Assembly (NCBI GenBank): GCA_018818405.1
Contig: JAHIRY010000038.1
Location: 35,449-99,448 of the forward strand
Direction: 5' to 3'
DNA: 64,000 bases
Source of the DNA: Patescibacteria group bacterium
Lineage (GTDB): Bacteria; Patescibacteriota; Patescibacteriia; UBA11705; JABHMO01
The notes beneath the pieces were generated by a model, which was not told where the DNA came from, made no database searches, and saw only the letters and a list, made by a program, of their open reading frames with translations. How positions within the stretch are numbered: the first letter of the stretch is position 1; every line of letters starts with the position of its first letter. Of this stretch, positions 3,807-42,766 are shown piece after piece. The translations under genes were made by a program, and so were the position numbers.

Positions 3807-4040
3807 GTGCGAAAAAAATGCGCCGCCTACACAACTGATTCGGGACGGGAATGCTGGATGCTCGCCGGATCATTTAATAAAGCGCCAAATTGTCCGAAAC
3901 TAAAACAGCATTTCAAAGATTGCTGGGAATGTCCATGGTTTTTGAAAATGAACCCGTCATTCAAAGATGAACCAGCTTCGTCGAGGGAAGAACTGTTCAG
4001 CAGTCTCTGGCGATCGGGAGAAACGCTGGGATCTTATTGA
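3807..4040 (+). CDS. small Cys-rich hypothetical protein (77 aa)
   Basis: ORF in a 430-nt gap; 5 Cys including CWEC; no SD; weak support. Confidence 0.3.
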   Translation: MRKKCAAYTTDSGRECWMLAGSFNKAPNCPKLKQHFKDCWECPWFLKMNPSFKDEPASSREELFSSLWRSGETLGSY

Positions 4041-39348: not shown

Positions 39349-40035
39349 CTACCGAACCCTGCAAACCCCGAACCAATCTTCAAATTTCCGACAGATTTCC
39401 TGCAATTGTCTTTTCGTATAAATATTCTCACTGATAAAATCCATATTTACCAGCTTTACCGCCGGACGGAATTGCTGGAGAAAAAATTTGTCAGCGCCTT
39501 TTACCTGCTCCGCCATTGCGACAATGTCATCTTCGGAATGAAGGCGCGGCAAAACAGTGGAACGAAATTCATGAGGCAATCCGCTCTCTTTTATTATTAT
39601 AACACTTTTCTTGATTGAATCTAAATCAACTTTGCGGCCGATAATTTGCGGATACTTTTCCCACGGAAATTTTATATCCATCGCCAGATAATCAACCAGC
39701 TTTGCCTTTACAAGATTTTCCAACACTTCCGGCCGGCTGCCGTTGGTGTCGATTTTTATGAGATAATCCAAATCTTTTAATTTTCCGACAAAAGAAATCA
39801 GATCATTCTGCACTGTCGGCTCTCCGCCGGTAATGCAAACCGCGTCAGTCAAATTTTTTCTTTTTTTCAAAAAATTCAAAACCGTTGACACCGGAATCAC
39901 CCGCGAAATTCCCTTGACAATTTCCGGATTATGACAAAAAGAGCAGCGAAAATTACACCCGATGGTGAAGATTGTCGCTGCCACTTTGTCCGGATAATCA
40001 ATGAGAGTTGTCTTCTGGAGTCCCCCGATTAACAT
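39349..40035 (-). CDS. nrdG: anaerobic ribonucleotide reductase activating protein (radical SAM)
   Basis: CNFRCSFCHNPE CxxxCxxC radical-SAM cluster; adjacent to nrdD. Confidence 0.8.
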   Translation of the reverse strand: MLIGGLQKTTLIDYPDKVAATIFTIGCNFRCSFCHNPEIVKGISRVIPVSTVLNFLKKRKNLTDAVCITGGEPTVQNDLISFVGKLKDLDYLIKIDTNGSRPEVLENLVKAKLVDYLAMDIKFPWEKYPQIIGRKVDLDSIKKSVIIIKESGLPHEFRSTVLPRLHSEDDIVAMAEQVKGADKFFLQQFRPAVKLVNMDFISENIYTKRQLQEICRKFEDWFGVCRVR

Positions 40036-40110: not shown

Positions 40111-40254
40111 CTATTTATTCAACATGCGGCTGAATGTTTTTCTGTCGCCGAATTCAGCTTTTTTTCCGTCATTCCACCGCTGAATCGGACTCAAGTATCC
40201 GACAACCCGTGAATAAACCTCGCATTTTTGTCTCTCAAGTTTTCTTGCTGCCAT
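40111..40254 (-). CDS. standalone 47-aa glycyl-radical domain ORF (the C-terminal tail missing from NrdD)
   Basis: MAARKLERQKCEVYSRVVGYLSPIQRWNDGKKAEFGDRKTFSRMLNK; RVxGYL glycyl-radical motif and downstream N.GK..E..R as in NrdD C-termini; not in the ORF track because it is under 60 aa. Confidence 0.6.
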   Translation of the reverse strand: MAARKLERQKCEVYSRVVGYLSPIQRWNDGKKAEFGDRKTFSRMLNK

Positions 40255-40300
40255 AATTTTTTTCATTTTATTTTTATTAAATTAAATTCTTTTTTTCGCT

Positions 40301-42367
40301 TTATTGAAATTGCTTTACTTCATTCGCCAGCAGAATATTCTCCGCATATCCCATTTCTTCGTCGCATGTCGGACAATATTCATATTCTCCTTCCAGATAT
40401 CCATGAATCGGACAAACGCTGAATGTGGGAGTAATGGTAAAATACGGCAAACGGAAATTTTCCGCGATTTTCCGAACCAATGCTTTTGTGCTCTCGGCCG
40501 ACGGCAGGCTCTCGCCGACAAATCCGTGCAAAACCGTTCCGCCGGTATAGCGCGTCTGCAATTCATCTTGCAATCTCAACGCTTCGAAAATATCATCAGT
40601 GTAATTCACCGGCAGATGAGTGGAATTCGTATAATACGGCGCAGCGCCGGTATTTTTGCACGCTTGTTCATTGGCAACGACAATTTCCGGATATTTTTCC
40701 TTGTCCAATCGGGCGAAACGATAAGAAGTTCCTTCAGCCGGAGTTGCTTCCAGATTGAAAAGCTCATTGCTGGCATTCTGATAATCCATCAGCCGCTCGC
40801 GCATGAAATCCAATAATTGCATTGCGAATTTGTGTCCTTCCGGAGCGGCGATATTTTCTCCCAACAAATTCAAGCAAGCTTCATTCGCGCCATTCAGTCC
40901 GATGGTATTGAAATGATTTTTCCAATATTCGCCGAAACGTTCCTTGATCCCGGTCAGATAATGTCTGGAATACGGATACAGACCGCCGTCAATGAATTTT
41001 TCCAAAATTCCGCGCTTCACTTTCAAGCTGTCTCTCGCCAGATCCATGAGTCTTGCCAATTGTTCAAAAAATTCTTCTTTTGTTTTCGACAAATATCCGA
41101 GCCGAGCCAAATTGATAGTCACAACTCCGATCGAGCCGGTCAGCGGATTGGCGCCGAAAAGTCCGCCTCCTCTTTTTCTCAATTCCCTATTGTCCAGACG
41201 CAGTCGGCAACACATGCTTCGCGCATCTTCCGGCGACATGTCGCTGTTGATAAAATTTGAAAAATACGGAATTCCGTATTTCGCGGTCATTCCCATTATT
41301 TTTTCAATAATCGGCGCTTCCCAATTCCAATCTTTGCTCACATTGTAAGTCGGAATCGGCCAGCTCAGAACTCTGCCCTTGCGATCGCCCTCGGTCATTA
41401 CTTCTATAAACGCCTGATTGAACATGTCCATTTCAACTTGATATTCGCCGTAAGTTTCATTTTGCGGTTCGCCGCCGATGAGAACTTGTTCATTCGCCAG
41501 ATTGCTAGGAACGAACAGATCCAGCGTCACATTGGTAAACGGAGTTTGAAAACCCACGCGCGTCGGCACATTCATATTGAAGAGGAACATTTGCACTTGC
41601 TGTTTCACCTGATCGTAATTCAAATTGTCATAACGGATAAACGGCGCGACCAAAGTATCCAAATTCGAAACAGCCTGCGCTCCTGCCGCCTCGCCCTGCA
41701 ATGTATAGAAAAAATTTACCAATTGGCTGAGAGCGGTTGTCAAATGTTTCGGCGGTTTGCTCTCCACTTTTCCGCGCACTCCGCCAAATCCGCGCAACAT
41801 CAAATCCTGCAAATCCCAACCGCAACAATATGGCGCCAGAAGTTGAAGATCATGAATATGAAAATCGCCCTGCACATGCGCGTCTCTGATTTCCGGAGAA
41901 TAAACTTTGTTCAGCCAATAATTCGTACTGATTGTAGATGCAACATAATTGTTCAATCCCTGAAGAGAATAATCCATGTTGCTGTTTTCGCGCACTTTCC
42001 AGTCCAACTGTTTCAAATATCCCTCCATCAATTCATCGGAATTTATCATGTTCTGAATATCGCGCATTTTCGAATGCTGATCGCGATATATGATGTAATA
42101 CTTTGCAACTCGCAACAGTTTGCTTTCGATTAAAATATTTTCAACAATATCCTGAATCTCTTCAACCGCGGGAATTGATCTCTCATGAAATTTTTTGTTC
42201 AATGTCTCAACCACCAAATCCGATAATGCCTCGGCTTTTTCCCGGTCAGGCTCGCCGGCCGCACGCATTGATTTAAAAATAGCCAATACTATTTTTTCCT
42301 GATCAAAATCAACGATTCGGTCGTCTCTTTTTCTTATTTGAATGATTTTGTTGGCAGAATAGGTCAT
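40301..42367 (-). CDS. nrdD: anaerobic ribonucleoside-triphosphate reductase, class III, truncated before the glycyl-radical loop
   Basis: N-terminal ATP-cone; class-III core; C-terminal CPIH...CPTC Zn-ribbon remnant, then stop; no RVxGY in this ORF. Confidence 0.9.
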   Translation of the reverse strand: MTYSANKIIQIRKRDDRIVDFDQEKIVLAIFKSMRAAGEPDREKAEALSDLVVETLNKKFHERSIPAVEEIQDIVENILIESKLLRVAKYYIIYRDQHSKMRDIQNMINSDELMEGYLKQLDWKVRENSNMDYSLQGLNNYVASTISTNYWLNKVYSPEIRDAHVQGDFHIHDLQLLAPYCCGWDLQDLMLRGFGGVRGKVESKPPKHLTTALSQLVNFFYTLQGEAAGAQAVSNLDTLVAPFIRYDNLNYDQVKQQVQMFLFNMNVPTRVGFQTPFTNVTLDLFVPSNLANEQVLIGGEPQNETYGEYQVEMDMFNQAFIEVMTEGDRKGRVLSWPIPTYNVSKDWNWEAPIIEKIMGMTAKYGIPYFSNFINSDMSPEDARSMCCRLRLDNRELRKRGGGLFGANPLTGSIGVVTINLARLGYLSKTKEEFFEQLARLMDLARDSLKVKRGILEKFIDGGLYPYSRHYLTGIKERFGEYWKNHFNTIGLNGANEACLNLLGENIAAPEGHKFAMQLLDFMRERLMDYQNASNELFNLEATPAEGTSYRFARLDKEKYPEIVVANEQACKNTGAAPYYTNSTHLPVNYTDDIFEALRLQDELQTRYTGGTVLHGFVGESLPSAESTKALVRKIAENFRLPYFTITPTFSVCPIHGYLEGEYEYCPTCDEEMGYAENILLANEVKQFQ

Positions 42368-42485: not shown

Positions 42486-42766
42486 AATTATTCCTACAAG
42501 CTAAACAGCTACAACTTTTACAAATTAAAAAAAGATAGCCCCGCAAGCATATAAATCATCTCCATATGCTTAACTACATTATACGCCAATTGCAATGTCA
42601 CGGCAACTTACCGAATATTAAATTTTTTCACCTAAAAATCAGAAAAATTAAGTGTCGCCAAATTTTCAGGGAAATGCATTCTTTGTACTGTGGATAAATA
42701 AAAACTCGATTCATCTATTACAAAACCCGGACAATTGCCCGGGTTTAAACTATTTTAAAGTTTATT

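Follow-up and report, generated by a model that had tools for sequence, protein, structure and literature searches.

In published descriptions, glycyl-radical enzymes (GREs) bear the radical at the C-terminal end of the catalytic chain, and the sole detached modules known are the spare parts of pyruvate formate-lyase (PFL) (PMC13450708). According to that 2026 review, spare-part proteins are known only for formate lyases, and the paper on the PFL spare part GrcA merely speculates on further ones (PMC8683613). Among ribonucleotide reductases (RNRs), split enzymes are known from class II and from one phage class I gene; the literature searched, with subscription-only papers outside its coverage, yielded no split class III RNR and no description of a split NrdD. 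Here, we describe the class III RNR locus of a Patescibacteria group bacterium (assembly GCA_018818405.1, contig JAHIRY010000038.1, positions 35,449 to 99,448), located on a stretch of 64,000 nucleotides that was analyzed as a whole and is hereafter called the window. In this locus the gene of the anaerobic reductase NrdD stops short of the glycyl-radical loop, which is encoded by a separate small open reading frame (ORF) followed by the gene of the activase NrdG. The locus very probably encodes a naturally split, obligate two-chain class III RNR in which the glycyl radical resides on a subunit of about 47 amino acids (aa; about 5 kDa). Many lineages have kept the split under selection, with the two parts, judged from their start signals, translated independently, and the large chain, referred to as the body, has not decayed.

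Described Systems Closest to the Split Enzyme

The canonical single-chain NrdD with its NrdG activase (PRK08270/TIGR02487 type) shares with the locus the ATP-cone, the barrel, the SMCCRL motif, the C-x2-H...C-x2-C ribbon, the RVVGY...WNxGKxxE tail and an adjacent NrdG2 activase. The two differ in that the radical tail of the window is a separate gene product and in that an acidic tail and a basic leader have been added. Judged by its sequence the system is a class III RNR in all respects but a defining one, since the radical motif does not share a chain with the barrel.

The PFL spare parts GrcA/YfiD and T4 Y06I are likewise small stand-alone proteins with a glycyl-radical loop and, as GrcA/YfiD, the window's peptide is presumably activated by the activase of its parent and docks into a large chain without a functional loop (PMC8683613). 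However, GrcA is a PFL homologue of 127 aa, whereas peptides of the window type measure 41-60 aa and match PF13597. GrcA moreover coexists with an intact PFL, which it rescues only after oxygen cleavage, whereas the window's peptide would be obligate and not spare because it is the only glycine loop for its body. The analogy with GrcA/YfiD drawn in the first-pass annotation of this DNA, which was made from the sequence alone, thus fits a possible mode of working but does not extend to identity, the peptide being obligate, derived from NrdD and without a zinc ribbon of its own.

Splits in other RNR classes provide a second comparison. In the class II NrdJa/NrdJb enzymes (e.g., of Pseudomonas aeruginosa) the catalytic chain is also encoded in two adjacent ORFs (PMC9669993; PMC4520616), and a C-terminal functional module associated with a zinc finger sits on the second chain. 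Both class and cofactor are different, however, and NrdJb is a large folded domain with a zinc finger and reducing cysteines, whereas in the window the body retains the zinc ribbon and the detached part is limited to the roughly 47 aa with the radical site. The class I nrdA of Aeromonas phage Aeh1 also specifies an RNR large subunit in pieces that reassemble non-covalently (PMC3045599), but this split was made by, and holds, the homing endonuclease gene mobE and is restricted to one phage, whereas the 46-nt gap of the window holds no mobile element and the fission is of ancient origin and wide distribution. No homing endonuclease, intron or intein is present at the break: the 46-nt spacer contains neither an ORF nor an Rfam intron, and other split loci have short spacers as well.

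Two Complementary Parts of One NrdD

The body, the small ORF and nrdG are three co-directional ORFs on the minus strand, with the following features:

40301..42367, minus strand: nrdD body, 688 aa, with ATP-cone, 10-stranded barrel and zinc ribbon, without glycyl-radical loop
42071..42343, minus strand: ATP-cone domain, aa 9-99 of the body (PF03477, E 1.1e-18)
41201..41218, minus strand: finger-loop motif SMCCRL, aa 384-389, with the predicted catalytic cysteine(s), from the translation and invariant columns
40364..40414, minus strand: predicted zinc ribbon CPIHGYLEGEYEYCPTC, aa 652-668, entirely inside the body
40304..40363, minus strand: acidic C-terminal tail DEEMGYAENILLANEVKQFQ, aa 669-688, specific to split forms (stop codon at 40301-40303)
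40255..40300, minus strand: A+T-rich spacer of 46 nt between the nrdD stop and the small-ORF start
40111..40254, minus strand: small ORF, 47 aa plus stop, predicted glycyl-radical subunit, with the basic leader MAARKLERQK followed by CEVYSRVVGYLSPIQRWNDGKKAEFGDRKTF
40195-40224, minus strand: CEVYSRVVGY in the small ORF
40198..40200, minus strand: codon for Gly19 of the 47-aa product, predicted to bear the radical
39349..40035, minus strand: nrdG, radical S-adenosylmethionine activase of 228 aa (TIGR02495 NrdG2 and Pfam Radical_SAM)

The Pfam NRDD profile matches the body over positions 1-532 of 562 (E 3e-179; 597.7 bits, cut-off 26.2) and the small ORF over positions 531-562 of 562 (E 5e-10). 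Body and small ORF are thus exactly complementary. NCBIfam PRK08270 is divided between them in the same way, at positions 3-656 and 649-682 of 684, the body scoring 1026.5 bits with this model (cut-off 548) and 514 bits with TIGR02487 (cut-off 326). In Pfam, the small ORF matches PF13597 NRDD only, with no Gly_radical match at E <= 0.1. The RVxGY motif is absent from the body and present on the 47-aa ORF, i.e., the system has it and the single chain does not. The first-pass annotation had described a 688-aa NrdD devoid of this loop and a small ORF bearing it, and both descriptions agree with the complementary matches in Pfam and NCBIfam: the body stops at NRDD position 532, and the small ORF covers 531-562, RVVGY included. 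Likewise borne out are the stop codons in all three frames of the A+T-rich spacer, which is also rich in homopolymers, and the position of nrdG, which starts 75 nt downstream of the small ORF and whose product scores 209 bits against NrdG2 (cut-off 131). The same annotation had let the body end directly after a CPIH...CPTC zinc-ribbon remnant. The motif is indeed there, but the 20-aa acidic tail follows it, and C-P-x-H-G-Y...C-P-x-C is the normal ribbon of this NrdD subfamily and not a remnant, since its His is invariant in the 61 sequences of alignment A4, 60 of which are fused NrdDs.

The small ORF could also start at an in-frame ATG upstream, at 40266, giving a product of 51 aa. In the closest relative, locus L010, the second ATG alone is conserved, which favors the 47-aa product; the NCBI protein identical to the small ORF (P0001, 'Patescibacteria group bacterium') also has 47 aa.

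Body and small ORF together are 56-63% identical to fused NrdDs over the full length, and none of the columns invariant among the aligned fused enzymes is lost in the body. Invariant in the 61 sequences are S384, M385, C386, C387, R388 and L389 of the finger loop (SMCCRL) and C652, P653, H655, G656, Y657, C665, P666 and C668 of the ribbon, and the column of the radical Gly is invariant in alignments A1 and A4. In an alignment, the predicted ribbon CPIH...CPTC corresponds to CLDCGY...CPKCG, the zinc site of P. copri NrdD (PMC11226230). A zinc site shared between the body, with three ligands, and the peptide Cys was considered but is not supported: the His of CPxH is invariant, the peptide Cys is replaced by Ala in the Thermotogae/Acetothermia splits and by Thr in several fused enzymes, and whether the knuckle has His or Cys does not covary with the peptide Cys.

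The structure was predicted with AlphaFold2 for one concatenated chain of body and small ORF. Without an alignment the result was useless (predicted local distance difference test, pLDDT, of 33), and with an alignment of 60 fused homologues the model reached a pLDDT of 79 and a predicted template modeling score (pTM) of 0.77. It matches the class III RNR structures 9D3X, 8P23, 4U3E and 1H79, i.e., solved enzymes of S. thermophilus, P. copri, T. maritima and T4, with E values of 1e-29 to 1e-20. In the peptide part, a beta-hairpin (strands 700-705 and 708-711) with Gly707 at its turn is followed by a helix (717-724), at a pLDDT of about 70-79; as modeled, this fold is the canonical glycyl-radical element.

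Position of the Break and Split-Specific Extensions

Fused relatives read TPTFS-[IV]-CPxHGY..GEH..CPxC, followed after 2-8 residues by [C/T]EVYSRVVGY. This order of CPxC, short linker and CEVYSRVVGY places the fission in the linker between zinc ribbon and glycine loop; by this comparison, the break is at a domain boundary and the ribbon stays with the body. The tail core motif is nearly alike in split and fused forms, and both sides of the break carry an extension that the fused proteins do not have. Split bodies end in an acidic tail of 12-77 aa, the first 12 residues of which carry a net negative charge in 30 of 30 split loci, and in most of these bodies the tail begins with the motif D-x-E-[ILM]-G-Y, found in none of the fused ones. 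The split peptides begin with a basic leader of 5-15 aa, which has R-[QT]-[KRP]-C at its end and a net positive charge in 26 of the 30 loci.

Variants of the small ORF were observed. In Thermotogae and Acetothermia (L015, L016, L018 and L021; junction near 3930-3965) it overlaps the end of nrdD by 20-29 nt, has a TTG start behind a strong GGAGG and encodes a conserved 26-aa leader (KLNYKEDxDGNLILEDGxxIP...), and Ala replaces the otherwise near-invariant Cys before EVYSR. In L007, L012, L013, L027 and L038 the usual Tyr after the radical Gly is replaced by Phe (RVVGF/RIVGF), a substitution seen in one of the best 120 database clusters.

Distribution, Gene Order and Translation Signals

Queried with the small ORF, the database gave 541 protein clusters, the best 120 of which all measure 41-80 aa (median 50). 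Their sources are Patescibacteria, Synergistales and DPANN archaea, and some of them are encoded on contigs of 0.6-2.9 Mb. GY is found in 119 of these best 120, and a Cys eight residues before the Gly also in 119. One cluster is 100% identical to the window's small ORF. When 1.84 billion representatives were searched exhaustively with HMMER, 2646 matches resulted, the best 150 of which all have 47-123 aa. Single small ORFs of this kind also recur across independent assemblies, with P0102 in 45 collection blocks and P0118 in 35 (24 contigs examined for each). Phages yielded three weak matches only, all inside genes annotated as full NrdD.

In a census of 80 loci, out of at least 592 in species-representative genomes, a detached short tail was found in 34 and a fused nrdD in 41. 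The order is nrdD-tail-nrdG in 25 of the 80 loci and nrdD-nrdG-tail in seven, among them that of the cultured Halanaerobium saccharolyticum MA284_T2; two loci are orphan small ORFs, three hold longer stand-alone tail proteins and two are obvious frameshift artefacts. Order nrdD, nrdG, small ORF is also seen on a 2.95-Mb contig (L001). One orphan lies on a 334-kb Falkowbacteria contig (L011, 4001-4126, plus strand) between mraZ-rsmH and an ftsL-like gene, with no nrdD, nrdG or other RNR gene within 4 kb on either side. The two artefact loci (L026 and L085) present nrdD in overlapping frames, without added tail, leader or start signal, and are likely sequencing frameshifts.

The junctions of the split loci vary widely. 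Gaps range from -29 to +194 nt, or 720-840 nt where nrdG lies between the parts; the archaeal locus L004 has a 4-nt overlap of small ORF and nrdD stop, and in L007 the small ORF follows nrdD after 27 nt. All three relative reading frames of nrdD and small ORF occur, and many small ORFs have their own aaGGAGG Shine-Dalgarno sequence 6-9 nt upstream. Between the window and L010, the spacer differs in sequence and in length (46 vs. 103 nt), and the small ORF shows a pS (synonymous) of about 1.0, i.e., saturated synonymous sites, with a pN (non-synonymous) of 0.09; judged from these substitutions, it is under purifying selection. The genuine two-piece NrdD that the first-pass annotation had entertained finds strong support in the occurrence of the split across phyla, the varied gene orders and spacers, the ribosome-binding sites of the small ORFs and the selection on them.

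Some loci have further features. In the DPANN locus L004 (2435-10126) the split RNR belongs to a compact cluster for deoxyribonucleoside triphosphate synthesis with the order nrdR, nrdD, small ORF, nrdG, DUF1653, two dCMP deaminase-like genes, dCTP deaminase, ThyX and thioredoxin. The nrdD bodies of L012, L013, L037, L042, L055 and L069 contain inserts of about 300 aa near alignment position 275 or 390; as the flanks are otherwise collinear, these inserts are probably inteins.

Evolution of the Split

In a neighbor-joining tree of the bodies, without bootstrap support and star-like in its deep part, the split genes fall into coherent clades interspersed with fused ones, including fused lineages that belong to the candidate phyla radiation (CPR). 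The split clades comprise two of CPR bacteria, with the window in one of them, a clade of Synergistota, Bacillota and Halanaerobiales with the order nrdD-nrdG-tail, the DPANN archaea, and Thermotogae with Acetothermia. The D-x-E-[ILM]-G-Y tail common to several clades hints at common descent combined with horizontal transfer.

Proposed Mechanism

In the model we propose, an ancestral nrdD would have broken in the short linker between the C-terminal zinc ribbon and the glycyl-radical loop. The large chain would supply the catalytic barrel with its finger-loop cysteines, together with ATP-cone and zinc ribbon, and the separately translated 47-aa chain the whole radical loop (RVVGY) and the WNxGKxxE helix. 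By homology, the Gly hairpin of the small chain would insert into the barrel of the large chain as the attached tail does in fused relatives, NrdG would abstract the Gly H-atom to form the radical on the small chain, and this radical would start catalysis through the finger-loop Cys. The consistently negative tail (30/30) and mostly positive leader (26/30) suggest that both extensions probably act as a non-covalent clasp that replaces the lost covalent link. In P. copri NrdD, the glycyl-radical domain, composed of a zinc site, a buried loop and a surface tail, behaves as a highly mobile unit (PMC11226230).

The split could pay off in one or both of two ways. Oxygen cleavage of NrdD occurs at the radical glycine (PMC3019208), and because of this a damaged enzyme might be repaired cheaply, by replacing a peptide of about 5 kDa instead of an 80-kDa enzyme. 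In PFL, a damaged loop is indeed replaceable by a separate small protein (PMC8683613). The activase might also act more readily on a free, mobile peptide than on a loop that has to swing out of the barrel. Taken to its full extent, this would make the peptide a diffusible and exchangeable radical cofactor that NrdG activates in its free form, that is loaded onto the body and that is replaced after oxygen cleavage, a proposal that we put forward tentatively and rate as somewhat less probable than its converse.

Some considerations weigh against the two-chain reading as a whole. A Shine-Dalgarno sequence is not recognizable for the window's small ORF, nor for its nrdD or nrdG, and in the AlphaFold2 model, computed on a concatenated chain, tail and leader appear as short helices of low confidence (pLDDT 53-70). 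Association of the chains and radical formation on the peptide are predicted from homology with the fused enzymes, replaceability and easier activation are hypothetical advantages of a fission that could be neutral, and an intact second NrdD is conceivable beyond the 64 kb of the genome covered.

Alternative Explanations

Neutral fission is the main competitor of a selected split, although less likely than not. The two chains would then behave as the fused enzyme does, without any advantage and without exchange of the peptide in vivo, the break being tolerated since the tail binds tightly in the barrel. Split and fused forms are interspersed among close relatives, even within CPR bacteria, the tail core motif is nearly identical in both, and other RNR classes tolerate splits, as exemplified by NrdJa/NrdJb (PMC9669993) and phage Aeh1 NrdA (PMC3045599). 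However, the split spans very deep divergences, between bacteria and archaea, and several gene orders, and the acidic tail and the basic leader that are specific to it are themselves conserved. The existence of an independent stand-alone family of NrdD-type radical domains, described below, further suggests that detachability itself is selected.

It is very improbable that the small ORF is instead a GrcA-like spare for another, intact NrdD, with the truncated body inactive or otherwise employed. The small ORF lies in a probable operon between a loop-less body and nrdG, that body is fully conserved, no second NrdD or tail was found within the 64-kb window, and paralogous RNRs are rarely kept in small CPR genomes. 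Stand-alone NrdD-type domains do coexist with intact NrdD (L082; L022 together with L051), and the sequence covers only 64 kb of the genome, but the genuinely spare-like family has its own zinc ribbon and the window's peptide has none.

A single chain restored by programmed frameshifting, ribosome hopping, an intron or protein trans-splicing is hardly credible. T4 nrdD carries a group I intron, and a role as +1 extein nucleophile is conceivable in principle for the invariant Cys at the start of the core. Nevertheless, nrdG lies between the parts in seven loci and the tail is unlinked in L011, the small ORFs occur in three relative frames at varied distances with their own Shine-Dalgarno sequences and start codons, and the region around the split contains no Rfam family, introns included. 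A split intein was considered and rejected, tail and leader together being only about 20-35 aa and far too short, and the core Cys is ancestral, since fused relatives share it.

The chance that a pseudogenizing insertion or an assembly or sequencing error broke nrdD in this genome alone, as the first-pass annotation had allowed, is negligible: the spacer is A+T-rich and homopolymer-rich and true frameshift artefacts do exist in some assemblies (L026, L085), but these are unlike the conserved fission in their overlapping frames and lack of tail and leader, and the idea is refuted by the recurrence of the split in hundreds of independent assemblies and a cultured isolate, the stops in all three spacer frames, the purifying selection on the small ORF and the intact invariant residues of the body.

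Significance

We consider it highly likely that the two-chain class III RNR with its radical on a peptide of about 47 aa is a real, conserved and previously undescribed architecture. The 47-aa protein is present in databases, where NCBI annotates P0001 as 'anaerobic ribonucleoside-triphosphate reductase', yet it has apparently not been recognized as a separate subunit. In automated annotation the 47-aa ORF is called either a full reductase or hypothetical, and the body may be taken for a truncated gene; such mislabeling can distort metabolic reconstructions from CPR, DPANN, Synergistota and Halanaerobiales genomes.

If the peptide were indeed an exchangeable cofactor, it would be the smallest natural glycyl-radical protein, and the enzyme the first obligate two-chain GRE. 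It would match the 'spare part for other GREs' speculated on in the field and, together with the stand-alone family of about 113 aa, would mean that class III RNRs evolved detachable radical modules at least twice. The natural split would also offer a minimal natural substrate for a GRE activase and help with the long-standing problem of how the activase reaches a glycine buried in the barrel, as the free peptide can be synthesized, isotope-labeled and trapped on NrdG. It would further allow a direct test of whether cells limit oxygen damage by sacrificing a 5-kDa piece and not an 80-kDa enzyme. Such experiments are feasible because the cultured Halanaerobium saccharolyticum has the split.

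Stand-Alone Radical Domains and Features Around the Locus

A different family of stand-alone proteins, of about 86-120 aa, combines its own CxxC...CxxC zinc ribbon with an NrdD-type loop (CEVYSRVVGY...WNxGK). Members are found in L031 (3752-4114, plus strand), in L082 (4175-4435, plus strand) and as the C-terminal part of the matched ORF in L022 and L062. The protein of L082 sits between a complete fused nrdD and nrdG, that of L022 is from the same metagenome-assembled genome as the fused NrdD of L051, and that of L031 is surrounded by unrelated genes. A search for the family gave 936 matches, the best 120 of which all have 97-154 aa and are mostly from Desulfobacterales. From its domain make-up and gene contexts, this family is a candidate for a true GrcA-like spare part of class III RNR.

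Around the genes of the window, no terminator-like site was found on the minus strand of either intergenic gap, the sole such site on this strand being weak and located inside the nrdD coding sequence (40597-40611). One further feature lies upstream of nrdD:

42578..42606, minus strand: promoter-like site TTGCCG, 17 nt, TATAAT (consensus match only)

This site agrees with the consensus at 10 of 12 positions, sites of this kind being no more numerous here than in shuffled sequence of the region; it is likely the start of an operon of nrdD, small ORF and nrdG. Just downstream of it, at window positions 42545-42571 on the minus strand, an inverted repeat AAGCATAT-N11-ATATGCTT may be an operator. 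The gene directly upstream of nrdD is ftsZ in the window and nrdR in related loci.

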